From: a virus
Taxonomy: Duplodnaviria > Caudoviricetes
Reading direction: 5' to 3' (one strand)
DNA length: 24,540 bases
IMG/VR virus record: IMGVR_UViG_3300012987_000005
Span: 1 to 24,540 of that record
Position numbers and translations under genes: made by a program
The notes under the pieces: generated by a model
Seen by the model: the letters and a program-made list of their open reading frames with translations, nothing else
Told to the model about the DNA's origin: nothing
The model's database searches: none
In this document: positions 1 through 24,540 of the stretch, one piece after another
Layout: every line of letters begins with the position of its first letter
How positions within the stretch are numbered: the first letter of the stretch is position 1

Positions 1-123
1 CCGGAGGCGGCGAGCTCGCGCTCGGGCCGTCGTCGGTGTCGCCTGGCGATGGCAACGGCGGCACCATCACGACGCCGCCCGAGGGCGGCACCGGCACACT
101 GCCCGGTTGCGGCGACGGCAGCG
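1..123. repeat. Terminal direct repeat, left copy (circular assembly overlap)
   Basis: Bases 1-123 (ccggaggcgg...gacggcagcg) are identical to 24418-24540, and a reading frame continues across the join. Confidence 0.97.
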
Positions 124-247
124 GGGGCTTGACGGGCGGCGGAGTCGAGGTGGAAGCGTTCGCGTCTTTCTCACCGGCCACCATCAGCGCGACGACTGCG
201 CCGCCGGCGACGAGAACTCCGAGAGCAATTTTAGCACCGCGTTGCAT
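1..247 (-). CDS. 5' part of junction-spanning Pro-rich membrane protein (about 349 aa in total, ends at 23615)
   Basis: ATG at 247 gives MQRGAKIALGVLVAGGAVVALMVAGEKDANASTSTPPP..., with an N-terminal TM segment. In frame with ORF 23615..24514 through the repeat (position 97 = 24514). Confidence 0.85.
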   Translation of the reverse strand, partial: MQRGAKIALGVLVAGGAVVALMVAGEKDANASTSTPPPVKPPLPSPQPGSVPVPPSGGVVMVPPLPSPGDTDDGPSASSPPP

Positions 248-249
248 GG

Positions 250-633
250 TTACGCTCCAAGTAGGATCGAGGGGTCTTCAATGGTTCCGTTGGGCAGTCT
301 GACGCGCACGTGCACTCCGTTGCCGAGCCACTCAGCGTTACAAGCGGCCTTGATCTGGCCGGCGCAGTACAGTTCCCACAGGCGGTAAATCACGAGATCG
401 TCGCAGTCTCCCCAGCCGCGTTGAAACGTGACGTTCGGGAGTGCCCAATCCTCGTAGCCAGAGCCATGCCCCGGCTCTTGTCGAAACTTGATGCCGCTCT
501 CATACAGCGGCGGGAGTTGCCACGACCGAGCGAGCGGAACGCAGCCCCGGGCGATGCCTTCGATCGTGCACTTCGCAAAGTGCGCGACCAGGCCGCCCGA
601 GAGCCCGCCCCGCAGCTCGGTCGAGATGATCAA
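250..633 (-). CDS. Transglutaminase-like (papain-fold) Cys-His-Asp enzyme, possible maturation protease
   Basis: GWGDCDDL (Cys), GVHVRV (His), IEDPS (Asp); ATGA overlap with the upstream candidate capsid gene. Confidence 0.75.
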   Translation of the reverse strand: MIISTELRGGLSGGLVAHFAKCTIEGIARGCVPLARSWQLPPLYESGIKFRQEPGHGSGYEDWALPNVTFQRGWGDCDDLVIYRLWELYCAGQIKAACNAEWLGNGVHVRVRLPNGTIEDPSILLGA

Positions 634-1301
634 CGACGGACCGCTGCGCCGAAGAACGCGCCGGAAAACACCTTGTCCACGGCCGTCGGATTCGACACCA
701 CGAACTGCACGCCCGTCGAAGTTTCGATCGTCGGGAACACGATCTGCGGCGCGGTCGAAACCTCGCTAAAAAACTCGATGGGCACACCTTCGCTGGCGTT
801 GAAGATGTTCGTGCCCGCGATGCTGATCTCGTGCAAAAGGAGGCCCTGCACGGTCGACGGTGCGCGGAAGCTCTGCGGTGCCATGGGGCGCTGCGGCTTC
901 TTGTCGATGGTTTGGCGCGCACCGCCCGCGGTGATCGTGGTGCGCCCGATGCCGAACCACGTCACGTCGCCGGCGACGTAGTCCATGGGCGCGTAGTTGA
1001 TCGGCCGCTGGACGCCCTGCGCGGACTCCACCTGCGCGATCGGCGCGCCCGTGTAGTACGGCAGCACGCGCGGATCGCCCGTGTAGTACGGCATCACGCG
1101 CGGATCTCCAACGCTGCCAGCACCGGCGAGCAAGGCGTCGACTTGCTGCGAGAGCCCAGGGTCGCCGACGTGGAACGGCGCGGGCATCTGGATCAGATTG
1201 TCGAGCTGTTGAGCGAGAGTCGCTGGCTCAGCTGCAGCAGCAGGCATCGCAGCGACCAGAGACAGAGCGGGAAGGATCGAGAGCACTTTTGCAGTTTGCA
1301 T
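630..1301 (-). CDS. Candidate major capsid protein (hydrophobic leader, repeat linker, C-terminal beta-sandwich of about 110 aa)
   Basis: Good RBS (GAGGT), second gene of the structural operon, alternating beta-strand pattern in the C-terminal half. The CDS is solid; the capsid role is inferred. Confidence 0.55.
   Translation of the reverse strand: MQTAKVLSILPALSLVAAMPAAAAEPATLAQQLDNLIQMPAPFHVGDPGLSQQVDALLAGAGSVGDPRVMPYYTGDPRVLPYYTGAPIAQVESAQGVQRPINYAPMDYVAGDVTWFGIGRTTITAGGARQTIDKKPQRPMAPQSFRAPSTVQGLLLHEISIAGTNIFNASEGVPIEFFSEVSTAPQIVFPTIETSTGVQFVVSNPTAVDKVFSGAFFGAAVRR
1047..1106. repeat. 30-bp tandem repeat x2 (GDPRV[ML]PYYT)
   Basis: gcccgtgtagtacggca[g/t]cacgcgcggatc at 1047-1076 and 1077-1106, one mismatch. 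Confidence 0.95.
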
Positions 1302-1406
1302 TCTTGGACCTCAATGGTTGGTGGACGAGCGATCGCGCACGCTTACACGCGCGCAAGCCGCGTCGCTGTCAGGCGCGCGGCGGGTGTCGGCGACGAAAGC
1401 GAGGGC

Positions 1407-1754
1407 TTATTCAGCCTTCGTTTTGTCGTTCACGAAGCGGTAGGCCGCGTTTGAAATCAGCGAGATGCCGGTCATCGCAACAGCGACGCGACCGGGGAGT
1501 TTCTCGATGACCAAAGCTGGCGCAGTGAGTACCACGCCGACTAATCCAACGGTCGGAATGCCGAGCACCTTGTGAGGCTCGCCGTCCTTTCCGTATTTCT
1601 TGTCGAAGTAACCCGCACCCGCGCCCGTTGCGAGTGAGGTCGCTCCGCCAAGCATGAGCGTGTCTGCAGTGCGGCCTTCGGCCACACGCCGTCGCCCAGC
1701 TTCGGTCATCGACTTGATGCGCTGCGTCGCCTGCGCGAGTAGAGATTTCGACAT
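1407..1754 (-). CDS. Small membrane protein (2-3 hydrophobic segments), first gene of the structural operon
   Basis: ATG 1754 (MSKSLLAQ); hydrophobic VLGIPTVGLVGVVLTAPALVI and VAVAMTGISLISNAAY. Confidence 0.75.
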   Translation of the reverse strand: MSKSLLAQATQRIKSMTEAGRRRVAEGRTADTLMLGGATSLATGAGAGYFDKKYGKDGEPHKVLGIPTVGLVGVVLTAPALVIEKLPGRVAVAMTGISLISNAAYRFVNDKTKAE

Positions 1755-1818
1755 CCTGTCAAGAGAATTCAAAGAAAGCGGTTTCGCCACATAAAAAAGG
1801 GCGGCATACTTACAGATC
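1755..1818. promoter_or_regulatory. AT-rich divergent control region
   Basis: Only divergent gene junction in the genome and clearly AT-richer than background; -10-like CATACT at 1805-1810 on +. Confidence 0.55.
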
Positions 1819-2373
1819 ATGATGAACGACGGGGAATTGCGCCGGAGCCTTCAAAACGTGGGGCCACTGCTGCCCGCACTGCACTGGCAGGGTGAGCTAC
1901 TAGATGGCAAACGCCGCACCCTCATCTGCGACGAGCTCGGGCTGTACCTGCCCGTTCGGTACGTCGAGTCTCTCCAGGGCGCGTGCAGCTTCTTGTGGCC
2001 GGTGCATCCACAGCGCGCGCTCGAACTCGCCGGGCAGCGCTCGGTCGCCGAGCTCGCCGAACTGTGCAGCGTCGGAGTTGGCGCGATCGCAGTCGAGCTC
2101 GCACGCACGCGTGTGAAGCCCAAGCCCGAACGCCGCGCTACACGACACAAGCGCGACGAGAAAAAAGTGCTCGTGCAGGTGTGGGTAGATCCGCAGTGGA
2201 AGCACTACGTTCAGCGCGCGGGCGAAGCGGCGCGGTTGCCGGACCTGTCGTCTGCGATCCGCCGCGCAGGATGGGACCTTGTCCAGCGCGTGCTGCCGAA
2301 CCCACCGCAAGAGGGCGGACGACGCGGCCCGGCGCTCGAGCTCGTTAGACCCGAGCCACGTCGCGAGCGTTAG
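1819..2373 (+). CDS. Putative transcription regulator with C-terminal ribbon-helix-helix-like domain
   Basis: Only credible plus-strand gene, filling a gap in minus-strand coding; KKVLVQVWVDPQWKHYVQRAGEAARLPDLSSAIRRAGWDLV fits a beta-alpha-alpha pattern. Confidence 0.6.
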   Translation: MMNDGELRRSLQNVGPLLPALHWQGELLDGKRRTLICDELGLYLPVRYVESLQGACSFLWPVHPQRALELAGQRSVAELAELCSVGVGAIAVELARTRVKPKPERRATRHKRDEKKVLVQVWVDPQWKHYVQRAGEAARLPDLSSAIRRAGWDLVQRVLPNPPQEGGRRGPALELVRPEPRRER

Positions 2374-2654: not shown

Positions 2655-2684
2655 CTGTTACGTTGCACGTGAAAACAAGCCCCT

Positions 2685-2873: not shown

Positions 2874-3070
2874 GATGCACCGCCAATCTTCAGCACTGCG
2901 GGGAACGCTTTCGGGTCTGCTTGGTTCGCGAGCTCGAGGAACTTCTGCCCGTCGTGGCGAGTCGCGTTGTACGTCGCGCAGCGCGGCACTTCGTGCTGCA
3001 TGCCGTTAGTCGCGGTATCGAGCCGACACGACCGACCGCACCCCGGGCACTTGAACTCAACGATCGACAC
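2870..3070 (-). CDS. Small Zn-ribbon protein
   Basis: FKCPGCG...QHEVPRC; overlaps both neighbours. Confidence 0.6.
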   Translation of the reverse strand: MSIVEFKCPGCGRSCRLDTATNGMQHEVPRCATYNATRHDGQKFLELANQADPKAFPAVLKIGGAS

Positions 3071-3749
3071 GAGGCCTCGCAGCGCAAAACTCCCCGCTCA
3101 GCTCGGCCACCTTCGAGAGCAATTTTTCGTTGGGATAGATCGGAGTCAATTTCAAATGGCCAACTTCCAGGGGAAGAAGTTCTACGCCACCGAGCCGCCG
3201 CGAGAGGCAGTAGTCCTCGGACACGTACGCGCCGTCGATTGCGGTCGAGCGAGTGAACTCCCAGCACGTCTCACCTCGCATGCTGAATTCATGGCTGTCA
3301 GCCGCGAGCTCGAGCAGCGCGGCCGCGCTGAACGCAACGAAACCGAGCCCCACGTGCCACGACCCTGGACGCATTGGGATGACTGGTTCACCCGTCGCGA
3401 TCGCGCACTCAGGCAGCATCCGCGACGCCGCCAATTGTCCACCTTGCTGCACGTACGTAGCCGACGCCGGCGCGCCCGTCTCGCGTGTGCGATCCACCAC
3501 GCGCTGCGCGTCGTTGAGCGAAAACACGATATCATCGTCCACCATCAGAATCGTGTCGATGCCCTTGCCTTCGTCCAGCTCGAGCGCGCGCTTTGCCATC
3601 GACAGAGCGTGGTTCCGCGCGAGCGCGACGTCGCTCGAGCCCGACTGCTCAATCAGCCGCGCGCCGGCGTTGCGGCATGCGCGCACCGCCTTGAGCGTTT
3701 GCGGGTGAAGCCCGCGGTTCGTGGAAATGACCATCAGCGTCTTTTTCAT
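3057..3749 (-). CDS. GT-A fold (family 2-like) glycosyltransferase
   Basis: DVALARN, ILMVDDDIVF (DxD), VGLGFVAF, YVSEDYCLSRR. Confidence 0.8.
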   Translation of the reverse strand: MKKTLMVISTNRGLHPQTLKAVRACRNAGARLIEQSGSSDVALARNHALSMAKRALELDEGKGIDTILMVDDDIVFSLNDAQRVVDRTRETGAPASATYVQQGGQLAASRMLPECAIATGEPVIPMRPGSWHVGLGFVAFSAAALLELAADSHEFSMRGETCWEFTRSTAIDGAYVSEDYCLSRRLGGVELLPLEVGHLKLTPIYPNEKLLSKVAELSGEFCAARPRVDR

Positions 3750-4282
3750 TTGGTTGCCTCAAAAATGCTTGTCTCGAGCAGCGCGACCGGGGACGTCTTG
3801 TGATGGCCGTCAATGTCGCGCAGGTCTTGTGTGTAGAAGCTCTGCCCGTAGTCGGGCCTGGCTGATGCAGTGAAACCAAGCGCGATCAGCACGGCCCATG
3901 CCATGTCACCTGTCCAGCAAGCTCGGTGCCCCGAGCCGGAGATGATGTATCGAAAGACGTCTGCCCGACCCGCTCCGGCTGCTCGACGACACGCGATCAG
4001 ATAGCGGCAGTACTCGGTCACCTGCCACTCCGACGTGAAGCGCGTCACGTCTGGGAAGGAGAACCGAAGCACACCGCCGGGCTCGAGCACCCGGCGGCAC
4101 TCGGAGAGGAACGCCATGCCCTCAACGAACGGGACGTGTTCGATCACGTGCTCAGCGAAGATGTAGCGCGCTGTGCTTGACTCGAAGGGCAGCGGCCGGG
4201 CGATGTCGATGTCGCGATCGTGGTTCTCCCATGGTGCCGGAAGCTTGTTCGGGCCGCACCCGAAGTGAAGCCAGCGCATCAC
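3746..4282 (-). CDS. Class I SAM-dependent methyltransferase (Methyltransf_11-like)
   Basis: LHFGCG motif I, AEHVIEH, ECRRVLEPGGVLRFSFPD. Confidence 0.88.
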   Translation of the reverse strand: MMRWLHFGCGPNKLPAPWENHDRDIDIARPLPFESSTARYIFAEHVIEHVPFVEGMAFLSECRRVLEPGGVLRFSFPDVTRFTSEWQVTEYCRYLIACRRAAGAGRADVFRYIISGSGHRACWTGDMAWAVLIALGFTASARPDYGQSFYTQDLRDIDGHHKTSPVALLETSIFEATK

Positions 4283-5357: not shown

Positions 5358-5566
5358 TTGAGCGCTCCGCGCTGCACGCCAGCCGCGTGACGATGCCGCC
5401 ACCCCTCGCAGTGCGGCTCGGGATGCACGACCTCGAGCACGAGCTCGTCGACTATGAGCGTTGCCGAGCAGCTCGAGCAGAGCACGTCGGTGTCACACAT
5501 CGGTGCGGGGTCCGTCTTCCGTTCGTCGCGTTCTTCGGGTTGGTTCATGGGAGGCGCACCTTTCAA
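5354..5566 (-). CDS. Small Zn-binding protein
   Basis: CSSC...HPEPHC; start overlaps the ssb stop. Confidence 0.5.
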   Translation of the reverse strand: MKGAPPMNQPEERDERKTDPAPMCDTDVLCSSCSATLIVDELVLEVVHPEPHCEGWRHRHAAGVQRGALK

Positions 5567-5976
5567 AACGGGATATCGTCGTCACCACCACCGCGGCCGT
5601 AGTCGGGCTCGTCAGCCGGCGGGGGACGGTTGTTCGAGTTGGGCGCGCGCTCGCAGAGCGTCACTTCGAACGCGCGCACCTCAGAGGCGTAGCCCTTCGT
5701 GCCGTCGTCTTTTTCCCATTGTCGGTGACGCAGCTCGCCCTCGATGTGCAGCCGCATGCCCTTCTCTAGAAACCTCGCGAGGCCCTCCGCCCGCTTTCCC
5801 CAGATGATCACGGTGTGCCACTGCACGTCCTCTTGCTTGACTCGGTTCTTGTCCAGGAACGTGCGCGACGTCGCAATTCTCAGGCTCATCACCGCCTGGC
5901 CGGCAGCCGTCATTCGCATCTCGGGATCTGCGCCGAGATTGCCCAACAGAAACACTTTGTTCAGTCCGTTTGCCAT
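5563..5976 (-). CDS. ssb: Single-stranded DNA-binding protein
   Basis: LNKVFLLGNLGADPE, WHTVIIWGKRAE, IEGELRHRQWE, acidic tail DDDIPF. Confidence 0.97.
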   Translation of the reverse strand: MANGLNKVFLLGNLGADPEMRMTAAGQAVMSLRIATSRTFLDKNRVKQEDVQWHTVIIWGKRAEGLARFLEKGMRLHIEGELRHRQWEKDDGTKGYASEVRAFEVTLCERAPNSNNRPPPADEPDYGRGGGDDDIPF

Positions 5977-5985
5977 GGTCGCGCT

Positions 5986-7476
5986 CTATGCTCCTTCGAG
6001 GTGTTTTCGGATCACTGCAGACACAATTCGCCGCTCGAGCGACTCCGACCATTCGGAGTCGCGCTTCGCATCGAACTGCGCTCGTAGCTCGTAGTCGGCT
6101 GCCGCGGTCAGCGGCGCCCGTTTGTAGTAGCCCTCGTCATCTAAGACGAAGCCGTTTGGCACGATGATGCCCAACTTCTCTTTGACTTTGCTCTCCTCGA
6201 GCGAGTGCTCGATGTCGACTCGCGCCCAATGTCCGCGCTGGTTTTCGTACAGACAACACGGGCACACGTTCGCCTTCTCAACTGCCCACTTCGCGAAGCC
6301 AGCGCTCGACTGTTTCAGGCGCTTTCCGTCGAGCTGTGCGTAAACCTCCGCGAACACTTCAGGAGCGGCGCGCTTGGCACCGCCCTCTTGGATCTCCCAG
6401 TCCTTCGTTAGGTATTTGATGAGCTCGCGGTCGACGTCGTGATCGGCTTTGCGAACGTCAGGCACGAGCAGCTCGACCGTTTCATCGGGTCCGAGCAGGC
6501 CCATCTTGCGCGCAACCTCGTGATAGGCACGCGTCCAAAGTGGATGCAAAACTTCCTTGTTGTCGATGTAGCGCGAGAACATCCACACGTGCAGATGTGG
6601 GTGACCTAAACCGTCGCCCTTGTTCGGTGTCCACTCGAAGACCAGCAGGTAACTCAACAGATCTGCAATCGGCACGAACTCCGGCGCACTTCCTGGACGT
6701 CCGTTCGGGAAATTGTGGGCCAAGTCGTCGAAGGTGATCGAGCTGAGACCACCGAGCTCGCCCCGCAATCGATCACCGAGCAGGCGCCAAAATCGCGCCC
6801 AGGTCTTGCGGAGTACTTCAATGCGTTCGCTCGCTGAACCACGCGAAGGCAACGTGAACGTGGCGAGGCGTTCTCCCCAACGTTCGCTCTTCTTTTGGTT
6901 GCGACGCGTGTATCCCGCAAGCGTGGCAGCCGTGACCAGCCCGAGCCTCTTTCGATTGAAGTCTTTTCGGAACTTCACCACTTGCTGAGTGCGGCACGTC
7001 GGACAGAACCACTTCGAGCCGCAGCCAACTTCGATCGGCGTCGCGTTCTTGCAGCTTCGACACACGAGAGTGATTTTCGTTCCCTCGGACGAGCCGCATG
7101 CGTCGACACGCTCGAAGAGCTCTCGCTTCGTTTTTGCGCGCGACTCGTGCCAGCGCGTGCATCGCCGGCGCAGCATTAGCTTGCTCGCGCGTTCGGGCTT
7201 CTTGCTCTGCGCAGTCCACTCCGCGCCCAGCTTGTCCGGTACGAACTTCCCCGCGTCGTTCACCAGGCCCAGAGGGGGCAGAACCGTGCCCATGCGCCCC
7301 CAATGAATGCCAGCGGCCGAGCCGTCAGGCTCGGCCGGACCAGACACGGGGCGGCCGCTCAGCTCCGCTCGCTCGACGGTTGACGACCAGACAAACCGAT
7401 CGCGCGCTAGCGCGCGCCCGCGAGACTCCAATTTCCGCGCTGACTGTTCTCTTCCAAGCGCAGTGAGCGCCTTCAT
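5986..7476 (-). CDS. rep: Rolling-circle replication initiator (HUH endonuclease with Zn finger); start uncertain, frame open to 8004
   Basis: CRSC...GCGSKWFCPTC Zn finger, motif I LATFTLP, motif II HPHLHVWM, motif III LIKYLTK; directly upstream of ssb. Confidence 0.88.
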   Translation of the reverse strand: MKALTALGREQSARKLESRGRALARDRFVWSSTVERAELSGRPVSGPAEPDGSAAGIHWGRMGTVLPPLGLVNDAGKFVPDKLGAEWTAQSKKPERASKLMLRRRCTRWHESRAKTKRELFERVDACGSSEGTKITLVCRSCKNATPIEVGCGSKWFCPTCRTQQVVKFRKDFNRKRLGLVTAATLAGYTRRNQKKSERWGERLATFTLPSRGSASERIEVLRKTWARFWRLLGDRLRGELGGLSSITFDDLAHNFPNGRPGSAPEFVPIADLLSYLLVFEWTPNKGDGLGHPHLHVWMFSRYIDNKEVLHPLWTRAYHEVARKMGLLGPDETVELLVPDVRKADHDVDRELIKYLTKDWEIQEGGAKRAAPEVFAEVYAQLDGKRLKQSSAGFAKWAVEKANVCPCCLYENQRGHWARVDIEHSLEESKVKEKLGIIVPNGFVLDDEGYYKRAPLTAAADYELRAQFDAKRDSEWSESLERRIVSAVIRKHLEGA

Positions 7477-7547
7477 GTCGGCCAGCCACTCGGAACGCGG
7501 CGTAAGTATCCGTAATCGCTTCGCCGTTGAGTTATGCCGATCCTCGT

Positions 7548-7602
7548 CCTTAACCCGTTGGGTTAAGGCCTCGGTATCAAGTGAAGGGGGCGCTTCGCGC
7601 CC
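7548..7602 (-). other. Candidate double-strand origin (nick site CTTG^ATA between two hairpins)
   Basis: Minus-strand CTTGATA at 7581-7575; perfect 9-bp inverted repeat 7548-7568 (CCTTAACCC-gtt-GGGTTAAGG); GGGCGC-GAA-GCGCCC at 7602-7588. Confidence 0.75.
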
Positions 7603-8384: not shown

Positions 8385-8401
8385 AACTTCTTTGTGAGGG
8401 T

Positions 8402-14968: not shown

Positions 14969-16372
14969 TTATGGGAGTGGTGGTGGGAGAAAGATATTCA
15001 CGGCGTTGTCTCCCAACGTCGTCGCGTGCAAACCGTCGGTGGTGAATGCCGCTTGTCCCGTGGCACCAGTGACCGCCCAGAGCCCCGAGTTGAGACCGCT
15101 TTCTTGAAACGAGGTGATGTCGAAATAGCCGGTAAAGTTCGGGATAGTCCCCGTTGTCAGCGCGCGCACCCACGTGTTGACCGTCACTCGCTTCCCGTTG
15201 TTCGGATCGAGCGTTTGGCCAGGCAGGTCCTGCCAATTATTCGACGACGTCGTCCGTGGAGAGATGGTGCCCAGGTAAGCTAAGGCCCGGGGGAAATATG
15301 CAGCGATGGTTTGTAGATTCGCCTGCACCTGCGCAGCCGACTGACTGGCGAAATCGTTGATCCCGAGCACGAGCTGAATGGTCGTCGGAGGCGCCAGGTT
15401 TGCGAGCCTCAAACGGCGTGTGGGCCCAGCGACGAACCCCGACGCTGTGCTGCCTGCGCCGCACAGGCGAAATGTCGCGTGGTTGCGTCCCAAACACAGC
15501 TGCGACTGTCCGCGAAAAGCCGAGTCGACAAAGGAGTTCTCTCCGTAGCCTTCGCCTCTGGAGTCCTCGATCAGACACAGATCGTTTCTCCGCGACGTGA
15601 AGGCCATGATGCGTTGCGGCCACATGCCGAAGAAACTGCCTGCGACCAGCGTCGGAGCAAGAGTCGAATCGACCGCGTTCTGATTCGATTGATCTCCCAT
15701 CTTGGTGCTCGGGTATGGCCCGTACGGGGAGTACGGCAGGCCGCCGGCCCCCTGCTGTTGCCAAAAGCTCCTAATCCGGTAGTGCCCGCAGACAGTGGCT
15801 CCCGCTACCGCGAGCTCAGTGTTCACACCGGTTGCGAACTTCATCACCGTGTCACTCAACGTCGTAATGGCACCGATCGGCCCGTTGTTGGTTCCGCTGC
15901 GCGTCGATGCGAACACCGTATCGCCTACGCGGAACTCGTCGCTGAGCCACGATCCGCTGGTGCGGGTGATCGTGTTCGTAGCCGCGTCGAAGCTCACCAC
16001 CGTGCCCGGTGTCATGCACGGGATGGTGCGCGGCAGCTGGACCAGATCGGTCACTCCCTCTGCGCCGTCTGCGATGACGACGGACGTCGCGCCCCCATTG
16101 AATGTCAATCGCGTGATGGTGCCTCCGAGAGGGAACTCGATCGCCGCCGTGAGATAGACCGGCCCCCCTGAGACGGTTTCTGCCCCTGACAGCACAGCCC
16201 AGTTCGTCCACGCGACCTTGATCGCCCGAATTGGCGACATTGCCGTCTGACCGGTCCAGCTGTTGTACGGCAGTGCGCCCGCGAGAATGTTGTCCGGCAT
16301 CGTTGTGCGGTTAGACACCTCTCGCAGAACAGCGGCCAGCCCACCAAAGAAACCACCCGCCGACCCTCTCAT
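14969..16372 (-). CDS. Spike-like protein with C-terminal SGNH/GDSL hydrolase domain
   Basis: IEDSRG (block I variant), GAGS, LGIND, DGLH; Thr/Gly-rich beta N-terminus; ATGA coupling at 16372. Confidence 0.8.
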   Translation of the reverse strand: MRGSAGGFFGGLAAVLREVSNRTTMPDNILAGALPYNSWTGQTAMSPIRAIKVAWTNWAVLSGAETVSGGPVYLTAAIEFPLGGTITRLTFNGGATSVVIADGAEGVTDLVQLPRTIPCMTPGTVVSFDAATNTITRTSGSWLSDEFRVGDTVFASTRSGTNNGPIGAITTLSDTVMKFATGVNTELAVAGATVCGHYRIRSFWQQQGAGGLPYSPYGPYPSTKMGDQSNQNAVDSTLAPTLVAGSFFGMWPQRIMAFTSRRNDLCLIEDSRGEGYGENSFVDSAFRGQSQLCLGRNHATFRLCGAGSTASGFVAGPTRRLRLANLAPPTTIQLVLGINDFASQSAAQVQANLQTIAAYFPRALAYLGTISPRTTSSNNWQDLPGQTLDPNNGKRVTVNTWVRALTTGTIPNFTGYFDITSFQESGLNSGLWAVTGATGQAAFTTDGLHATTLGDNAVNIFLPPPLP

Positions 16373-16959
16373 GCGAACGCCAGCCCCGCGACCTGCGCGT
16401 AGATCGTGGTCCCGTCCCAATACCCGCTCACAATATCCTGCGCACCGACGGGCGTGGATAGAGTGAGCCCAGCGCCGCCAGGAGTCTTCGCGCCCGTGAG
16501 CGTGAGTGTGTAGCTCCCCGTGCCGCCCTGGATCACCTTCAGCTGAAACCAGCACGCGCGAGTCGCTGGCAGACCAGTGAGCAGCACCGTGGCGTTGCCC
16601 GTGAGCGTGAACCTACGAGTGAGGGAGTCTGCGAGGCTCACGGGGACCGCGCCGGTGACGTTTCCCGCGTTGTCCTCGGCCGGGAAGTTCAATGCCGGCG
16701 AGACGCTCAAGAGCAGCAGCTCGTCGGCGCCCGGCGCAATCACCTCAGCGTCGATGTTTGTGCCGGCAGCAATCTTGCTCGACAGGTAGTTTGGCACCTG
16801 GTCTGCGCTCGAGACCGACACCTTGTGGTCACCGCCCGCCTCGATCGGAACCGGTTTGACGCTCAGGCCATCGTCGTCGATGGCCAGCACGTATCCGGGG
16901 GTGCTGGGCTCGAACGTCTGGCCGGCGTTGCCCCCGCGCAGCTGCAATGAAGGGTTCAT
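16369..16959 (-). CDS. Fibre or spike structural protein
   Basis: TLTGNATV...IQGGTGSYTLT...LTLST...DIVSGYWDGT resembles a common phage fibre beta-sandwich. Confidence 0.7.
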   Translation of the reverse strand: MNPSLQLRGGNAGQTFEPSTPGYVLAIDDDGLSVKPVPIEAGGDHKVSVSSADQVPNYLSSKIAAGTNIDAEVIAPGADELLLLSVSPALNFPAEDNAGNVTGAVPVSLADSLTRRFTLTGNATVLLTGLPATRACWFQLKVIQGGTGSYTLTLTGAKTPGGAGLTLSTPVGAQDIVSGYWDGTTIYAQVAGLAFA

Positions 16960-16975
16960 GGACGCTGTCCTTTGT

Positions 16976-17013: not shown

Positions 17014-17021
17014 GTTGGGGT

Positions 17022-17627
17022 TCAGAAGCATTCTTCGAGGCGCATGTAGAACGTGCCCTTCGACGTCGTCGAGCTGCTCGCCGTCGTCGGTGAGTACAGC
17101 TCGGCGCCGGCGCCGCCGAGATAACTCGGCTGCGCTGCCGCCGCGCGGATCTTGATCGACGGCGAATTCGCGAGCACACCGAGATCTGAGCCGAGACCGA
17201 GCGGGAGACGCAGAGTCACCTGACGGCCGCTCAGCACGTCCGTGGCCAGGTCCGCGGCCGCGGATGGGTGGTGCGTGTTGGCTGCGATCTCATTCCAGGT
17301 CGTGCCGCCATCGACCGAAACGTCGAGGTACAGGTTAACCGTACTGTCGATGTTGGTCGACGTGTTCACGACGTCGAAGGTGAGCTCCGCGCCATAGCGC
17401 GCGCCCGGCTTCGGATTGTCGAACGTCAGCGACAAGGCGTTGGCGTCGGAGCCGCCGAAACCAGCGGCCTTGATCGTCGTCTTCGCCGTCGGTATGACCT
17501 CTGAGCCGTCGCCGATCAGCGAGGAGAGATCGATCATGCGCAGTCGGAAACCCGGGCCCGGATCGAGAGGCACCTGGTTGTCGCTCACGGCGTCGGGGCC
17601 AGAGGGGGAAACTCGAAGAATCGTCAT
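17022..17627 (-). CDS. Beta-rich structural protein (vertex or receptor-binding candidate)
   Basis: ATG 17627 (MTILRVSP); alternating beta pattern, SVDGGTTW Asp-box-like motif. Confidence 0.65.
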   Translation of the reverse strand: MTILRVSPSGPDAVSDNQVPLDPGPGFRLRMIDLSSLIGDGSEVIPTAKTTIKAAGFGGSDANALSLTFDNPKPGARYGAELTFDVVNTSTNIDSTVNLYLDVSVDGGTTWNEIAANTHHPSAAADLATDVLSGRQVTLRLPLGLGSDLGVLANSPSIKIRAAAAQPSYLGGAGAELYSPTTASSSTTSKGTFYMRLEECF

Positions 17628-18310
17628 GCTGCTGCTCCGTTGGTAGTTGTGGTGTTGACTACTTGCGCCGCAGCGGTCGCCGCCTTGGCCAAGGATGTTT
17701 TGCGCTCCTCGAGCATCAGCTCGAGCGCGCCCATCACGACAGGGCCGGCCTGTCGGATTTGCTCGCTGATCGCCGCCATCGGATCGGAGTTCTGCTTGGT
17801 CTCCGTGAGCAGCGCGTGCTCTTTCATGGCGCGGTTGTACTCGTGCAAATCGTGCAATTGCTCGGCTTGGCTCTCGAGCGTTTTGGTCAGCGACTCGATC
17901 TGAATCTGCGCGCTCTTCAGAGTCGCGCCAACTACGTTCGTGATCAGCGTCATCGCCTCGGCAAAGGCCTTGCTCGCCTGCGCGTTCGCGCTCTGCGACA
18001 TCTCGCCGGCGGCCTTGTTCGTCCCCATCACTCGGATCTTGTGAGTGGAGCGGACGGTGCCCTCTGCCGTGGTTGCCGTGAAGACAAAGTCCACGTAACG
18101 CACAGGCATCTCTGTCGTGAGCGTGCCCACGAGTGCCGCCGCTTGTTGCACCCACTGGTCCAGGTCAGCGATCGGGCACACCCAGGTTTCCCAGGTGTTG
18201 TTCTCCGTCGTGAGCTGAACCATCTTGGTCACAAGCGTCTCGACCTCGCCGGTTGCTGCCGGCGCGAGGTTTCGCTTTGCCCACTCGAGCAGCTGGATCG
18301 CGTGCGACAT
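17624..18310 (-). CDS. Protein with C-terminal coiled coil
   Basis: 228 aa; heptad region QIQIESLTKTLESQAEQLHDL; coupled at both ends. Confidence 0.7.
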   Translation of the reverse strand: MSHAIQLLEWAKRNLAPAATGEVETLVTKMVQLTTENNTWETWVCPIADLDQWVQQAAALVGTLTTEMPVRYVDFVFTATTAEGTVRSTHKIRVMGTNKAAGEMSQSANAQASKAFAEAMTLITNVVGATLKSAQIQIESLTKTLESQAEQLHDLHEYNRAMKEHALLTETKQNSDPMAAISEQIRQAGPVVMGALELMLEERKTSLAKAATAAAQVVNTTTTNGAAA

Positions 18311-18696
18311 CAGAGGCCCGCTGCCTTCATGCGCGCAATCAGATTCGGGAGCGTGCTCAGCAGAAGCTGGCTGTTCGTGTTCGTGCCCGTCGACATCACC
18401 CCGGGGTTAGTGGGCGTGGCCGCCGGCGTGAACAACGCGACGAAGGTCTCGGGATCTGCCGGGTCCCAGAGCAGCGTGAAATTGCCAGGGGGCTGTCCAG
18501 GTTCTGCGGGCCACTCCGCGGCATCGATCGCGACGCCGCCGTTCACCGCGGGCATGTGCGCGCGCACCGCGTTCGGTGGCAGCGTGAAGCCTTTCGGCAC
18601 GCGCGGCGCGGCGCTCGCCGTCTTGCTCGCTCCGGCGAGCACGAGGGCACCAACGCCCAACACGCCGACCATCAACACCTTTGATAGAGCACCCAT
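18310..18696 (-). CDS. N-terminally anchored membrane protein
   Basis: MGALSKVLMVGVLGVGALVLAG. Confidence 0.7.
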   Translation of the reverse strand: MGALSKVLMVGVLGVGALVLAGASKTASAAPRVPKGFTLPPNAVRAHMPAVNGGVAIDAAEWPAEPGQPPGNFTLLWDPADPETFVALFTPAATPTNPGVMSTGTNTNSQLLLSTLPNLIARMKAAGL

Positions 18697-18698
18697 GA

Positions 18699-19259
18699 TC
18701 AACCCTTTCGCCTGCGTGAAACCAATAAAAGACCAGCACCGACCATCACGATCGCAAGCGCGACACCGACGCCGCTCGCAGCGCTCTTGAGCGCTTCGCC
18801 GGCGTCGGTCGCTGCTCCACCAAGCGAGTCTGGCCGCGGCGCGTTCGTGATCGGATTGCTCGCGCTCGGTGCCCACACGTCGTCGAGCAAGTACTCGTCA
18901 TCATGCGGCCAAGGCGTGAACGCCTGCGCGCCTCGGTTGAAGAACCTCACAATGAACGGCTTCGCTGGTTCCCCGAGCATCAAAGCATTGTCGCGCGACG
19001 CGGCGAGCTCCAGCCCGTCGTGAGTCGGGATAATCTCAACTTGCGCCCCTTTCAGCGCCGCCGGGTTGAGTGGATCGGCTACTGCAGCGCCGGGCGCAGC
19101 ACTCGCCACGTCCTCTACCCAAATGCGGAGCCGGCGCTCGTGCGACAACCCTAGGTTCATCGGGTTCAGATCGCCGAGATCATCCACTTGCCACACGGTC
19201 CAGACGTTCCAACCAGGGAACACTGGCGCGAAGCCCGGCGGGATCTGAACCGCAGTCAC
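18699..19259 (-). CDS. C-terminally anchored membrane protein
   Basis: Ends GVGVALAIVMVGAGLLLVSRRRKG. Confidence 0.75.
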   Translation of the reverse strand: MTAVQIPPGFAPVFPGWNVWTVWQVDDLGDLNPMNLGLSHERRLRIWVEDVASAAPGAAVADPLNPAALKGAQVEIIPTHDGLELAASRDNALMLGEPAKPFIVRFFNRGAQAFTPWPHDDEYLLDDVWAPSASNPITNAPRPDSLGGAATDAGEALKSAASGVGVALAIVMVGAGLLLVSRRRKG

Positions 19260-19260
19260 G

Positions 19261-19362
19261 TTACTTCTTCTCCGAAGCCGACGCCGGCGCCGTCATCAGC
19301 GCGATCGCGCCACTGACGAGGAGTCCGACGATAAGCCAGGTTGGGGTGCGTCGCTTCGACAT
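19261..19362 (-). CDS. 33-aa membrane peptide (not in the ORF track)
   Basis: MSKRRTPTWLIVGLLVSGAIALMTAPASASEKK*, RBS GGTGAGG, fills the gap between neighbours. Confidence 0.75.
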   Translation of the reverse strand: MSKRRTPTWLIVGLLVSGAIALMTAPASASEKK

Positions 19363-19366
19363 CGCC

Positions 19367-19735
19367 TCACCGGTGAATCAGCTGTTGAATGTACGGGGAC
19401 GCGAACTCCCAGATCACCACGAGTGCGCCGACCAGCGCGCCCATGCGATTCGAGGTGTGCCGCGCGGCCGACTTCGAAGCGTCCGCCACGAGCTCGCCGC
19501 GCTGCTCTTTGAGCGTCTTTCCGTGCTGACTGACCTCGCGGCTCAAGGTTCCAAACTGCACAGTCAGCGCGTTGACCGCAGCGGTGTTCGCTTGCGTCGC
19601 GCGCATCACCATGCCGAGGTCGACGAGCTCCGGAGATGCTTCTTTTTCTGGCGGCACAGTGTCCACCGGCCGAAGCTTCGGCACACTGCCGTGCCGCTTC
19701 GTGATCTCTTCGTTCTTATCGAACCCACGCACCAT
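19367..19735 (-). CDS. Coiled-coil protein with C-terminal TM helix (holin or XhlA-like candidate)
   Basis: TGATG coupled to the lysin; MGALVGALVVIWEFASPYI. Confidence 0.6.
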   Translation of the reverse strand: MVRGFDKNEEITKRHGSVPKLRPVDTVPPEKEASPELVDLGMVMRATQANTAAVNALTVQFGTLSREVSQHGKTLKEQRGELVADASKSAARHTSNRMGALVGALVVIWEFASPYIQQLIHR

Positions 19736-20847
19736 CAGGAATCCTCCTTCAGCAATCGCTTGATCGAAAACCACGCGAGCGCCGGGTCATCACGCCGGCG
19801 CGTGCGACGCTGGATCGGCCGCGGCTCCCCTTGGTTGCCCTCGATCGTCGTCACCGTGTTGTTGTCCACGGCCTCGACGATGAAGTGGTGCTGATAGGGC
19901 TGATCCTGGTAGCCCATATCGCCGCGGCGCAGCTCGTCCTCTGGCTTCACGCGCTGCAGCGCGTACAAGAACCCAGAGCGCTTATCGCTCGCCGTCTGAA
20001 AACGCCAGAACAGCGAGGGAGCCAGCGCCGCATCATGGAGGCAAAAGAGCGCGAGCGCGCCGCACCAGGCCGGCGGGTGAGGCAGATTCGGCGCCTGGTG
20101 CAGGGCGCTCGCCCAGTAGTCATTAACCCGTGAGGGTGTGAACGCGCCAGACTCGACGAGCGCGAGCTCACGGCTGGCAACCAACACGACGGCATCTCGC
20201 GCGAGCATGCTAACGATGCCGCCGACGTGCGCGCCATAGGAGCCAGCCGACAACGGCGGCGGAGCCGAGCGCAAGGACGGGAGCTCCACTGGCGGTTGGC
20301 TTTTTTTTTGCGCCTGGAACAACAACCGTGGCCGCGCGGTCGCTTGCGCGACCCGCGTCTCGATCTTTTGCGTCACATCGCCGACAGTCAGCGTGCCGTC
20401 GCCGTCCGCGTCCAGACCCGAGTTCTGATCGTAAATCTGCTCCCCCTTGGTCGCCAAAATGAAGTCTTTCGGCTTCCCCACGAACGCGGGCAGGAAGGTG
20501 GCCATGTAGTAGTCACCCGGCTCCTCCCTGCGAATCGCTCGCCCCGCCTGCCGATAGAACGCCTCAACAAATGGCAGCTGCTCGATCGCCGTCATCTGCG
20601 CGAGCGCGCTCGACGAAGTGCCCAACGCGGTCGCCGTCGCCGGCATGAATTGGATCAACCCAACCGCGCCACCATTCGCGTTTCGGGCGCTCGGATTGAA
20701 CCCCGACTCAAGCGACATCACCGCGCCGATGTAGTTGGGGTCTAGCCCTAGCCGGTCCGCCACCGCCTGCAGGGCAGTCGCAAACCCTGGCTCGAGCGCT
20801 TCACGAGCGCTCAAGCCAGGTAGATCGAGGTAGGTCAGCGTTGCCAT
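19735..20847 (-). CDS. Lytic transglycosylase (SLT-like) plus CHAP fusion in the zero frame; CHAP could also start at ATG 20208
   Basis: LESGFNPSARN...AVGLIQFMPATA; AWCGALALFC, GDMGY, HHFIVE, TIEGN. Confidence 0.85.
   Translation of the reverse strand: MATLTYLDLPGLSAREALEPGFATALQAVADRLGLDPNYIGAVMSLESGFNPSARNANGGAVGLIQFMPATATALGTSSSALAQMTAIEQLPFVEAFYRQAGRAIRREEPGDYYMATFLPAFVGKPKDFILATKGEQIYDQNSGLDADGDGTLTVGDVTQKIETRVAQATARPRLLFQAQKKSQPPVELPSLRSAPPPLSAGSYGAHVGGIVSMLARDAVVLVASRELALVESGAFTPSRVNDYWASALHQAPNLPHPPAWCGALALFCLHDAALAPSLFWRFQTASDKRSGFLYALQRVKPEDELRRGDMGYQDQPYQHHFIVEAVDNNTVTTIEGNQGEPRPIQRRTRRRDDPALAWFSIKRLLKEDS
20301..20309 (-). other. A9 slippery run between the SLT and CHAP domains
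   Basis: CAA AAA AAA AGC; the -1 frame reads KPTASGAPVLALGSAAVVGWLLWRARRRHR* (TAG 20212-20210). Confidence 0.7.
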
Positions 20848-21017
20848 CGTCAGTGTTGTCAACTTCGAGAGTGGCGCCGCTCGCGCGGCGGAGAGAGAGC
20901 AGCAACAAGGGGAACTGTTTGCGCGGCGGGTGAACCGCTGATCCGAAGCAAACGACCGTCAGGGCGTCGAGGAGCGTCCTCACGGCAGAGGCTGGCTGCC
21001 TCCGGCGGGGACGCGCC

Positions 21018-21380
21018 TTATGAAGGCGCGGGAGGGGGCGCCCCGCCGTCTGCGAGGTTGGCGCAAAGCCGATCTTCCGTCGCTTGCACACGCGCCCGAA
21101 TCGAGTCCGGTGGTGGCTGCAGCTTTGGGTCGAGCTGGAGCACGGCTCGCTCGAGTGCACGCAGCCCGCACAGGTCTGTTGCGATCTTTGCGGTCTGCGC
21201 GGGTGTCGGCGGCGGTGCTGAGCAGCTCGAGAGAACGGACAGCGCCGCGACCGCGCACGACCCAGCGAACCATGCGAGCGTCAACATCACCACCGGGTGT
21301 CGGCTCTCTCGCCGCACGCACAGCCAATACATGAAGCACACGAAAAGCATCGCGAGAAAGGTCACGATCACCGCGTTCAT
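21018..21380 (-). CDS. Two-TM protein with lipobox-like LSSC (lysis accessory candidate)
   Basis: AVIVTFLAMLFVCFMYWLCV; VVMLTLAWFAGSCAVAALSVLSSC. Confidence 0.65.
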   Translation of the reverse strand: MNAVIVTFLAMLFVCFMYWLCVRRESRHPVVMLTLAWFAGSCAVAALSVLSSCSAPPPTPAQTAKIATDLCGLRALERAVLQLDPKLQPPPDSIRARVQATEDRLCANLADGGAPPPAPS

Positions 21381-21718
21381 CGGCCGGCCTTCCGTGCACG
21401 CGCAGCTTTCGCGCGACCCTTGGCCATGCGCTCGAGAAACTCTTTCTTACTGACCTTCTTTTTGGCCTTCTTCTTACGCGCTGGCGCCTTCTTTTTGGCT
21501 TTCTTCTTAGCTGCCTTGCGCTTCTTGCGGATCGGCTGCCCGAAGACGGCCATGTGCAGCTCGGCGCGCTTGCGCTCGAGCTCGGAGAGCCGTTGCGACG
21601 GCGTCTTCTTGCGCGCCTTCGTTTTGGCCTTTTTCTTGGCGGCCTTTTTCTTGGCGGCCTTTTTCTTCGGCTTGGCCGCGACTGCCCGTTCGAGTTTTTT
21701 TAGCAAACTACCGCTCAT
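21377..21718 (-). CDS. Histone H1-like Lys/Ala-rich DNA-condensing protein
   Basis: KKKAAKKKAAKKKAK repeats throughout. Confidence 0.8.
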   Translation of the reverse strand: MSGSLLKKLERAVAAKPKKKAAKKKAAKKKAKTKARKKTPSQRLSELERKRAELHMAVFGQPIRKKRKAAKKKAKKKAPARKKKAKKKVSKKEFLERMAKGRAKAARARKAGR

Positions 21719-22275
21719 ATCTCGTACTCCTCGAAGCCGGCGCCGCCGGCCTGCAGCAGTGATCCCGATCGCAGCGGTATCCGCTCACCCGCCGCAACTG
21801 CGTATGGTCCGAACCCGCCGACCAACAAAGTCGACGCCGTCAAGGCGACGAAGCACGCCGCGTCGACTGATAGATCTGCGGGACCTGCGACGAAGCGCCT
21901 GCACGTCGCAACGCCGGCGGCATCTGCCGGCGCGATCATGCACACGACCTCGGCTGCCTCCTCGCCGCTCGGGTAGGCCTCGACTGTCACCTGCCCTGGC
22001 ACGTAGACGACCAGCGGCGGATCGATTGCGCGGAGCGTTCGCTTGGCGTTGGGGCCCCACGCGAGATCGACGAGCACGTGCCGCCCAAAGACGGATACCT
22101 TCCAGAGCTTCGCTGCGCGCATCGCGTCGCCGATTTGGACGCGCGACGAGTCCTGCAGCGGAGCATCCCAGCGGTTCGACGACTGCAGGCCGATCCACGT
22201 GGTGAGTCCACCGCTATTCGGCGTGCCCGGCGGCAGAGGCATCGCCGGGCGTGGGCTGAAGGGGTTCTGGTTCAT
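21715..22275 (-). CDS. Beta-rich structural protein (minor capsid candidate)
   Basis: 186 aa, beta-strand pattern, within the structural operon. Confidence 0.6.
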   Translation of the reverse strand: MNQNPFSPRPAMPLPPGTPNSGGLTTWIGLQSSNRWDAPLQDSSRVQIGDAMRAAKLWKVSVFGRHVLVDLAWGPNAKRTLRAIDPPLVVYVPGQVTVEAYPSGEEAAEVVCMIAPADAAGVATCRRFVAGPADLSVDAACFVALTASTLLVGGFGPYAVAAGERIPLRSGSLLQAGGAGFEEYEI

Positions 22276-22278
22276 GGG

Positions 22279-23613
22279 CTACGCCGATCGTGCGTGCCAA
22301 TGCGCAAGCCCACCGCGTACGTGCGCGTGGTGCCGTGCGTGGTGCGCGCGCGCTTGCCGATGGTGATGAGCGAGCGGCGCGCCGATGTACATCGGCACGA
22401 CCTGCGCAGGCAGCCCCACGCGCGTCAGGTTCACTGGGTTGCGCGTCAGGATGTTCGCCGCCGTCGCGATCTGGTGCGCTGCGGTGTTGCCGGCTTTCGC
22501 TTGCTGCGCGACGTTGGCGAGGGTGTTGCGCGCCTGGGTGGCTGAGTGCACAGCGGCTACCAGGTGCGCGGGCGCCTTGATGCCCGGAGGCAACGCCTTG
22601 ATCTGAGCTGCGGCAGCCACGCCTTTCTGCACGTTGGACACGAGTCCCGTCGCGGCCCCGGCGGCCGCTCGAGCGGCGTCCTGGATCGACTTGGCCTGCC
22701 CGATCGCCGCGCCGATCTGCACGGCTTTCTGCGCCTCTGGCGGCAGCTGTTTCAGCGCGGCGTCGATGACCACCTGCGAGACCTTCTCGCCTTTCGCGAG
22801 TCGCTTCGCCGCGTCGAGGCCCTGCAGCATCGCCGCCTTTGCCTGAGGCGATAGCCCTGGCAGCGCGTTGATTGCGATCGTCGTGATCTGCTTGCCTTGC
22901 ATCACGTCGCTTGCGACGCTGAACGCCGCTTGCGCGAGCGGACCGCCCGGGATCGCGCCCTTCACGCCAGCCAGGAGCGCATCGCTGATGCTCTGACCGG
23001 CGGCGAGCGCCATCGACGCGCCGATCGCTCCGCTCAAGCCCTGCCCTACCCCCGGCACGAACGAGAGCACCGTTTGCGCGTACGGTGCGATCGCCTTCAC
23101 GTTGGCGAGGGCAGACTTCAAACTTCCGAGCGCTACCCGATCGATGCGACCGCCGGCGGCGAGTTGGTTGACCGTGTTCGCGGGCAACAGCATCAGGTTC
23201 CCCGCGGCATTTGCGAGCGGACCGATCACCGGGATTTTGCCGAGCGCGCTCACCGCGTGCTGCGCGTAATTGGTCGCGACCTTCGCGACCTTCGCTGCCG
23301 CCTTCGTCACTGCAGTCACCCCCGTGGCTTTCGCTACGCTGCTCACGCCCTTGGCGACGCCCTTTGCAGCACTCGACACCGCGTGGGCGATCGAGCTGAA
23401 GAGACCGCCAACTGTCAGCGGCTCGCCGACGGCCATGGGCAACGGACAACCGACGGCCGCGAACTCACCCGCGAACTCTTTCCAGACGCGATTGAGCGGC
23501 ACGAAGACCTCTTGCTGCATGGTCTGCCCGCTCGCAGTCTGCACCTTGACCTTGAGGACGACGCCGTTTTCGCGCCAGTCCCAACCGAGTCCGCGCAAAG
23601 TGTTCATCGACAT
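22279..23613 (-). CDS. Ala/Gly-rich amphipathic protein with His/Arg tail (DNA delivery or membrane penetration candidate)
   Basis: GLFSSIAHAVSSAAKGVAKGVSSVAK helix; tail HHHRQARAHHARHHAHVR. Confidence 0.75.
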   Translation of the reverse strand: MSMNTLRGLGWDWRENGVVLKVKVQTASGQTMQQEVFVPLNRVWKEFAGEFAAVGCPLPMAVGEPLTVGGLFSSIAHAVSSAAKGVAKGVSSVAKATGVTAVTKAAAKVAKVATNYAQHAVSALGKIPVIGPLANAAGNLMLLPANTVNQLAAGGRIDRVALGSLKSALANVKAIAPYAQTVLSFVPGVGQGLSGAIGASMALAAGQSISDALLAGVKGAIPGGPLAQAAFSVASDVMQGKQITTIAINALPGLSPQAKAAMLQGLDAAKRLAKGEKVSQVVIDAALKQLPPEAQKAVQIGAAIGQAKSIQDAARAAAGAATGLVSNVQKGVAAAAQIKALPPGIKAPAHLVAAVHSATQARNTLANVAQQAKAGNTAAHQIATAANILTRNPVNLTRVGLPAQVVPMYIGAPLAHHHRQARAHHARHHAHVRGGLAHWHARSA

Positions 23614-23614
23614 C

Positions 23615-24540
23615 TTAGGCCTCCTGCAGGTGAATCAGACTCGTGATCGGCTTCTCGGGCGTTCCCCAGCCCTGGCCCTTTTCGCGCTCTGCCGCGGCCA
23701 AGAGCTGCGACTTGCGAGGCTCGCTCGCGGTTGCGGCTTTCGCGCGGAGCGCCGCGCGGTAGTCCTCGAGCCAGTGCCCCTCAGGGTAGGAAGCGTTCGG
23801 CCAAGCTCGGATGATTGGGAGCATTCCGGTTTCGTCGGCCAGTTTCAGCGCCGTGCCGGTGCCGAACTTGCCATCAGCGACGAGACCTCTGTTCTTCTGC
23901 CACGACACCAACGTGGGCTCTGGGATGCGTCGCCATTTCGGTGACTGCTCTTGCGCGAGCATCGCCGAGATGGTCGTCAACGTGTCGGCCGCGATGTTCG
24001 TCGGCTGCGACGGGTTGCCCGGCTCTGCGACGATCGGCGGTACCGCGACGGGCGGCTCTGGCACCGAGGCGCCAGGCGTCGGCGCCGTGGGCACCCCATT
24101 CGGAGCAACCACCGGAGGCAGCTGCGTTGCCGGCGGCAGCGTTCCAGGTGGAACTTGCAACGGCGGTACCGGCGAGCCAGCCGCCGGCGTGAATACGCCC
24201 GTCGCTGGGTTGAACGTGCCAACGATCGTGCCGTTCGGACCGAACACGTTGCCCGTGGCAGGGTTGAAGGTGCCGATCCCCGGCAGCGTGATCGTGTTGC
24301 CGTTCGGGTCCGGAGTCACGCCAGGCAGAGGCACCGAGCCAGGCCCCACCCCGGTACCGGGATTGAACGAGCCGCCACCAGGCAGCGGGATCGGTTGCGT
24401 TACTGGCGGGGCGACCCCCGGAGGCGGCGAGCTCGCGCTCGGGCCGTCGTCGGTGTCGCCTGGCGATGGCAACGGCGGCACCATCACGACGCCGCCCGAG
24501 GGCGGCACCGGCACACTGCCCGGTTGCGGCGACGGCAGCG
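23615..24540 (-). CDS. 3' part of Pro/Gly/Thr-rich membrane protein with a C-terminal peptidoglycan-binding-like motif
   Basis: Pro-rich stalk with repeated G[ST]FNP[AG]TG; WQKNRGLVADGKFGTGTALKL resembles the PGBD motif (Q..GL..DG..G..T). Confidence 0.8.
   Translation of the reverse strand, partial: LPSPQPGSVPVPPSGGVVMVPPLPSPGDTDDGPSASSPPPGVAPPVTQPIPLPGGGSFNPGTGVGPGSVPLPGVTPDPNGNTITLPGIGTFNPATGNVFGPNGTIVGTFNPATGVFTPAAGSPVPPLQVPPGTLPPATQLPPVVAPNGVPTAPTPGASVPEPPVAVPPIVAEPGNPSQPTNIAADTLTTISAMLAQEQSPKWRRIPEPTLVSWQKNRGLVADGKFGTGTALKLADETGMLPIIRAWPNASYPEGHWLEDYRAALRAKAATASEPRKSQLLAAAEREKGQGWGTPEKPITSLIHLQEA
24418..24540. repeat. Terminal direct repeat, right copy
   Basis: Identical to 1-123; implies a circle of 24,417 bp. 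Confidence 0.97.

Follow-up and report, generated by a model that had tools for sequence, protein, structure and literature searches.

In the portoglobovirus SPV1, a nucleocapsid protein condenses a 20-kb circle of double-stranded DNA (dsDNA) inside a membrane and a jelly-roll shell (PMC8459092). SPV1 is a circular dsDNA virus without a packaging ATPase, and it has been suggested to reflect the ancestral, motor-less condition of the vertical single-jelly-roll viruses (PMC8812541). The portoglobovirus profile further comprises no recognisable replication initiator, a non-lytic life style and a Sulfolobales host (PMC8459092). Here, we analysed the IMG/VR virus record IMGVR_UViG_3300012987_000005 over its positions 1 to 24,540 (the window, i.e., the whole stretch of 24,540 nt). 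With moderate confidence, we read it as the genome of a temperate, tailless, membrane-containing bacterial virus, in which a single-jelly-roll shell surrounds dsDNA condensed by a Lys/Arg-rich protein, and which has no recognisable ATPase.

The genome is real and complete, and comes from an apparently undescribed family. An exact 123-nt terminal repeat (1-123 = 24418-24540) gives a circular unit of 24,417 bp, and IMG/VR classes the record under direct terminal repeats. The genome is present in one soil DNA run, possibly the source sample of the record, at an even depth of ~5. An 873-nt contig from this run matches positions 1-315 and extends 558 nt beyond the start, and a contig of equal depth differs at 24057, 198 nt from its end; together these appear to fit the junction piece 23860-24417-315. 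The complete circular 24.4-kb genome proposed in the initial annotation is thereby confirmed.

The product of the gene at 630-1301 is predicted to have a jelly-roll fold and is likely the major capsid protein. A profile of this protein found 64 metagenome loci, one IMG/VR record and two genome-bin contigs, one from Polyangiaceae and one from Verrucomicrobiia. After the window's own contig (L004) and a duplicate (L008) were dropped, 65 loci were compared by tblastn; these include repeats of one contig and near-copies, and many are too short for the whole virion block. The gene and its neighbours are as follows:

1-123, no strand: assembly terminal repeat (identical copy at 24418-24540)
250-633, minus strand: transglutaminase-like protein, candidate maturation protease (invariant C77, H108 and D120; 59/65 loci)
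630-1301, minus strand: predicted single jelly-roll protein, likely major capsid protein (AlphaFold model, fold search)
1407-1754, minus strand: small membrane protein directly upstream of the jelly-roll gene (hydropathy)
1819-2373, plus strand: conserved gene on the opposite strand, divergent from the virion block, likely regulator (48/65 loci)

The modelled 630-1301 protein consists of an N-terminal arm with repeated VG motifs and a jelly-roll core of one domain (residues 109-222, ~114 residues). In a fold search, this model matched chains of HCIV-1, HHIV-2 and P23-77. The initial annotation had postulated a small single-jelly-roll shell and made this depend on structure prediction, which now points to such a protein; the single jelly-roll capsid fold is also a feature of Portogloboviridae. 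There are 45 close homologs, and the wider set holds 348 representatives. Of 43 homologs scored, 39 have 3-4 VG-type motifs in the arm, at a density of 4.7 per 100 residues vs 1.05 in the core, and similar IVG motifs occur in distant homologs. Profile comparison of 52 window proteins and five alignments revealed no second conserved jelly-roll paralog. Diverged second copies were observed in the accessory region of some loci (L066 9845-10399; L018 7108-7527; L019 5278-5697; L061 1-345; L073 10206-10934), where they could possibly interfere with co-infecting relatives.

It is conceivable that the jelly-roll protein serves at a vertex, in a spike or as a scaffold, and that the particle either consists of a pleomorphic membrane vesicle enclosing a nucleoprotein core or has another conserved protein as its main shell. 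We consider this unlikely because the jelly-roll gene is the first globular gene of the virion block, and because its product is more conserved across homologs (45-89% identity) than those of other beta-rich genes. In addition, tandem jelly-roll forms were recognised by eye among the distant homologs (P0099, P0125, P0133, P0149, P0166 and P0184), as expected of a capsomer-forming domain. The clusters of these tandem-form homologs include contigs of up to 20 kb.

Beside the putative capsid gene, the start of the 250-633 gene overlaps the jelly-roll stop. The residues C77, H108 and D120 of its product were kept in 39 of 39 aligned sequences, with no family match in Pfam, PHROGs or NCBIfam. The sole structural hint was a weak match (E 1.9) to 4fgo, which we take to be a transglutaminase-like protease. 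The protein might alternatively act in cross-linking, as a true transglutaminase. The 1407-1754 gene was found in 23/65 loci by tblastn and in 39 loci in the blastp cluster. The 1819-2373 product matched no family in the same three libraries; by eye, it resembles a ParB-type N-terminal domain (GPLLP...LDGxRR) followed by a C-terminal ribbon-helix-helix, motifs for which no library match was obtained.

The order of genes is fixed across the family. The divergent regulator, small membrane protein, jelly-roll and Cys-His-Asp protein genes are followed by those for a Pro-rich anchored protein, the 444- and 186-aa proteins, a basic protein and the lysins, and the block ends with 186-, 228- and 201-aa proteins and variable spikes (counts are given with the genes). 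Glycosyltransferase (27/65 loci) and methyltransferase (18/65) genes precede this block. Five relatives were read end to end, and all close into circles: four have terminal repeats (G001, 123 nt; G002:C503, 141 nt; G003:C51, 55 nt; the L021/L066 contig, 75 nt), and the L031/L035 contig closes via a 5.8-kb duplication. Family genomes fall within a narrow size range (21-28 kb circles). No description of the family was found in the literature, in a search that left subscription papers and supplements largely outside, so that an unnamed mention in a supplementary table is possible. The poorly described lineage of the initial annotation has thus become a family that shares the jelly roll and, in five complete relatives, encodes no recognisable packaging ATPase.

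Several observations concern individual relatives. L075 1558-7819 and L069 1-810 form a 23.3-kb circular relative with a type I restriction-modification-like block (by eye), in which an AAA-type open reading frame (ORF) adjoins a resolvase. An IS3-type transposase insertion at L035 712-1617 (Pfam rve, E 7e-29) agrees with an episomal stage. Past the protease gene, L013 3875-11706 holds lower-GC cell-like genes, indicating integration or chimeric assembly. In the near-identical trio L017, L018 and L019, the partial coverage includes neither replicon gene described below, and a third replicon type is possible.

The replication module of the window comprises the following features:

5563-5976, minus strand: SSB (Pfam E 4e-28)
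5986-7536, minus strand: HUH rolling-circle Rep with a zinc-binding segment (Pfam; 7/65 loci)
7548-7602, minus strand: predicted double-strand origin, consisting of hairpin, CTTGATACCGA, hairpin (motif and alignment)
12659-12985, minus strand: short paralog of the Rep zinc-binding segment, without HUH motifs (Rep profile E 8.4e-23)

The Rep_1 and Zn_Tnp_IS91 matches of Rep were weak and below the cut-off, but its motifs HPHLHVW (HUH) and YLTK (YxxK) bear out the HUH Rep of the initial annotation. The start codon is uncertain, as the open frame extends to 8070. The proposed origin was likewise upheld. The motif CTTGATA, which we liken to a pC194-type nick site, is unique in the window and lies between two hairpins just upstream of Rep (7581-7575, minus strand). 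The ATACCGA between the hairpins is invariant in 7/7 aligned Rep-bearing sequences, and the stem sequences differ. In four sequences, 0 of 200 shuffles equalled the downstream hairpin; in the other three, 1, 3 and 12 of 200 did so. The 12659-12985 product (108 aa) could be a replication regulator or a remnant; its tblastn matches in relatives land on Rep genes, and no separate gene was seen.

Two replicon types occur with the same virion block. HUH Rep was found by profile in L003, L005, L006, L015, L016, L022, L061 and L073. An alternative gene at the Rep position, together with a serine resolvase (Pfam E 1e-32), was found in L021/L066, L035, L036, L037, L047, L055 and L069/L075. No locus carries both types; the profiles were built from these same loci, and it is the absences that carry the information. 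The resolvase type accounts for three of the five complete relatives, which have the same virion block and no HUH Rep. The alternative gene had no family match in the libraries, Pfam and NCBIfam among them, and its product is modelled as four helices and a beta hairpin in winged-helix order. In the capsid and protease trees, all 9 resolvase-type rows (two of them labelled by the resolvase alone) group with the Rep-bearing L061 in the starred clade; the trees are midpoint-rooted and do not give the direction of replicon change. Because Rep and resolvase types share the virion block, one particle type serves two replicon types, of which the resolvase type is not expected to make circular single strands.

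These results bear on strandedness. The initial annotation leaned towards a packaged single-stranded DNA (ssDNA) and towards Finnlakeviridae. In such a FLiP-like virus, the rolling-circle single strand would be packaged as a 24.4-kb ssDNA genome, near the 24,893 nt of the Aeropyrum coil-shaped virus. We regard this as improbable, though conceivable within the Rep-bearing branch, and doubt that ssDNA is packaged in the virion, because three fully read relatives have the same block without HUH Rep and because codon skew does not differ between the replicon types. At four-fold sites, T/(T+A) equals 0.51 for the window; values span 0.41-0.69 among 8 Rep loci and, overlapping with these, 0.47-0.69 among 9 resolvase-type loci. 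SSB, moreover, is present in 2/65 loci only. Simuloviridae combine HUH Rep, jelly rolls, an episome and circular dsDNA, with one member lacking Rep, and SNJ1 pairs HUH Rep with a dsDNA genome (PMC12642351). An HUH Rep without an ATPase does not alone indicate ssDNA. The Finnlakeviridae lean was not sustained either, as the conserved capsid gene holds one ~114-residue domain and not a double jelly roll.

The preferred dsDNA particle has no recognisable motor. A six-frame scan of the circle gave no match to the Walker A patterns [GA]x4GK[ST] and [GA]xxGxGK, and the genome's six GK[ST] triplets all lie outside a P-loop context. Terminase, portal, HK97, FtsK and integrase families were absent from the 53 called proteins searched against Pfam and PHROGs, from the 26 of these scanned with NCBIfam, and from the Pfam scan of 50 alternative long ORFs. 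These scans agree with the initial annotation, which had found no Walker A motif, terminase, portal, HK97 gene or integrase and had named an ATPase, terminase or HK97 fold as contrary evidence. The Caudoviricetes features (HK97 capsid, terminase, portal and tail) were therefore not found. A phrog_196 'baseplate hub' match (E 1.8e-37) spans only the SLT domain of the lysin and was rejected as a tail gene; an AAA-lid match on 14454-14957 (E 0.0065) failed the cut-off. No P-loop protein is common to the five fully read relatives, whose credible Walker A motifs are ParA in two of them and one AAA-type ORF in G003:C51, which by eye sits among restriction-modification-like cargo. The missing motor is a trait of the family, which extends the earlier claim beyond the window.

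A motor could nevertheless have gone undetected if a preformed shell were filled by a non-P-loop viral protein, a host ATPase or a helper virus. Five conserved proteins had no family match (17022-17627, 17624-18310, 18699-19259, 21715-22275 and 22279-23613), and an FtsK-type ATPase is present in most known vertical jelly-roll viruses of this size (PMC8812541 and PMC5894146). However, alignments of four of these proteins (all but 18699-19259) lacked any conserved column of the GK[ST] or Walker type, the shell, lysis and spike functions are all encoded by the genome itself, and a circular dsDNA virus without an ATPase is known (PMC8459092), which makes this explanation quite unlikely. That the element is a plasmid bearing genes for the cell wall and surface, or that it arose as an artefact of assembly, is highly improbable: relatives do carry plasmid-type replicons, resolvase, ParA, an IS element and restriction-modification-like cargo, and Rep had no match among 72,556 plasmid records (neutral either way), but the narrow size range, fixed virion-like block, lysins and variable spikes, together with the even depth and the junction-spanning contig, speak against it.

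The other features of this virus-like genome are:

1-247, minus strand: Pro-rich junction-wrapping protein, N-terminal part with membrane anchor (hydropathy)
3057-4282, minus strand: methyltransferase and glycosyltransferase pair (Methyltransf_11 E 1.9e-6, TAGT E 0.009)
13188-13754, minus strand: membrane-anchored CHAP amidase (Pfam E 9.7e-9; hydropathy)
13754-14440, minus strand: 228-aa basic protein, net +19, conserved, position variable (15/65 loci)
14969-16959, minus strand: variable spike-like genes of 196 aa and of 467 aa with an esterase-like domain (PHROGs)
17022-17627, minus strand: 201-aa conserved protein upstream of the spike genes, candidate vertex protein (20/65 loci; alignment)
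17624-18310, minus strand: 228-aa conserved protein, no family, no P-loop motif (16/65 loci; alignment)
18310-19735, minus strand: four small genes (122, 33, 186 and 128 aa), three with a membrane segment (hydropathy)
19735-20862, minus strand: SLT lytic transglycosylase with a C-terminal CHAP-like domain (Pfam SLT E 1.1e-9)
21018-21380, minus strand: two-helix membrane protein or lipoprotein (hydropathy)
21377-21718, minus strand: Lys/Arg-rich protein, candidate genome-condensing core protein (44% K+R, net +44)
21715-22275, minus strand: 186-aa conserved protein, probably beta-rich, candidate minor capsid protein (27/65 loci; alignment)
22279-23613, minus strand: 444-aa Ala/Gly-rich protein, candidate for membrane penetration or DNA delivery (32/65 loci; alignment)
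23615-24417, minus strand: Pro-rich junction-wrapping protein, C-terminal part (38/65 loci)

Apart from 1819-2373, every conserved gene is on the minus strand. In the 444-aa protein, a VG..VGG motif precedes an amphipathic helix (hydrophobic moment 0.53) in 18 of 22 sequences by pattern and in three more by eye; a role in membrane penetration or DNA delivery is suggested. A Lys-rich ORF follows the 186-aa gene in 24 of the 25 loci long enough for the test. The Atlas model of the 21715-22275 product was of low confidence, with TM <0.5. Within the cluster of four small genes, the 186-aa gene (18699-19259) was found in 20/65 loci, and the 201-aa gene is duplicated in G001. The two spike-like genes matched phrog_19200 (E 3e-4) and phrog_8480 (E 1.5e-24) and occur in 4/65 and 0/65 loci. 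Membrane segments were flagged by hydropathy in 13/52 called proteins. The SSB, lysins (SLT and CHAP domains), spike-like proteins (the esterase-like candidate) and roughly ten membrane proteins listed in the initial annotation were therefore all recovered. The lysin slot is exchangeable, with M15 and M23 peptidases there in relatives (L017 4443-5111; L023 5932-6513). The window proteins also include an F5/8 domain protein, encoded in the early region (10267-11067, minus strand), with a membrane anchor and a Ser/Ala/Gly linker; similar anchored linker proteins occur in relatives (e.g., L003 1395-2069), and a role in superinfection exclusion is possible.

A bacterial host is indicated because peptidoglycan hydrolases are encoded, and this host probably belongs to the Polyangiales myxobacteria. 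Among 41 genomes from the family of G003 (Polyangiaceae), 40 had a best SSB match of 109-144 bits; in the phylum of G002, 38 of 41 genomes had one of 45-130 bits, and this second set includes G448, an unpublished genome that no claim depends on by itself. The SSB is thus closer to those of the G003 family than to those of the G002 phylum. Genome bins of circular contigs are weak host evidence, and no additional copy turned up when 400 other genomes of the class in question were searched with the capsid profile. A literature search turned up no tailless virus of myxobacteria.

The virus likely works like a portoglobovirus, but by the tested features it is not a member of that family, nor of Halopanivirales, Finnlakeviridae or Corticoviridae. 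The initial annotation was right about a poorly described, ATPase-less lineage, but did not name Portogloboviridae (SPV1 and SPV2), its closest analogue. Both lack a packaging ATPase, and the likely counterpart of the SPV1 nucleocapsid protein is the Lys/Arg-rich protein. The membrane and basic proteins of the window hint, indirectly, at an inner membrane and a nucleoprotein core with dsDNA as in portogloboviruses. However, no sequence similarity was found, and portogloboviruses are archaeal and have neither Rep nor lysins, whereas the window encodes HUH Rep and SLT/CHAP lysins and points to a bacterial host by its peptidoglycan hydrolases and SSB. The Cys-His-Asp protein beside the capsid gene is likewise not portogloboviral. 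Halopanivirales (Simuloviridae with SNJ1, Sphaerolipoviridae, Matsushitaviridae, P23-77) supplied the fold matches, and Simuloviridae share HUH Rep, missing in some members, and the circular episome. Halopanivirales have an FtsK/HerA ATPase, which was not found in the window, and two jelly-roll capsid proteins; by profile comparison no second one was seen here, with the 186- and 201-aa proteins as candidates. Corticoviridae (PM2-like) differ in their double jelly roll and FtsK-type ATPase. FLiP and the Odin group share the lack of a packaging ATPase, but have double jelly-roll capsid proteins, which the window does not; FLiP has ssDNA and Odin genomes measure 7-11 kb. No other family match to such a capsid protein was obtained with Pfam or PHROGs. 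The Odin capsid gene comes directly after a small conserved one, as in the window (PMC5894146). Adenoviruses and polintons serve as an analogy only, since they have double jelly rolls, linear genomes, ATPases and eukaryotic hosts, and the window differs in all of these. The basic core protein and the Gly-Gly site before the amphipathic helix resemble adenovirus proteins VII and VI. A cysteine protease (vUlp1) lies beside the capsid genes of adenoviruses and polintons (PMC11161782); the candidate protease of the window is transglutaminase-like by motif, and its likeness to the adenovirus protease is an analogy.

We propose the following life cycle. The genome would persist as a plasmid-like episome, because it has no integrase and relatives carry resolvase and ParA. 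Rep would nick CTTG/ATA, and rolling-circle copies would be converted to dsDNA circles, which the basic protein would coat. Small membrane proteins may then recruit host membrane, and the jelly-roll protein would form a lattice around the coated core. Proteolytic maturation at VG-type sites is suggested by the motifs: the adjacent Cys-His-Asp protein might trim the VG-repeat arm of the capsid protein and expose the amphipathic helix of the 444-aa protein for entry. The SLT and CHAP enzymes would open the cell wall. A fuller version of this proposal is held tentatively, as a possibility that falls short of being probable. This would be the first bacterial ATPase-free single-jelly-roll lineage; a protamine-like protein would wrap its 21-28 kb circle, and a transglutaminase-like protease of its own would cut, adenovirus-like, behind VG motifs of both the capsid arm and a membrane-lytic precursor. 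The capsid superfamily (348 representatives), with single and tandem-double forms, would then represent an independent single-to-double route.

The motor-less design rests so far on two hot-spring archaeal viruses. If our reading is true, a soil bacterial family would show that this design is widespread, and would give a marker profile for a group missed by Pfam, PHROGs and NCBIfam. Motor-free assembly would then become testable in mesophilic proteins.

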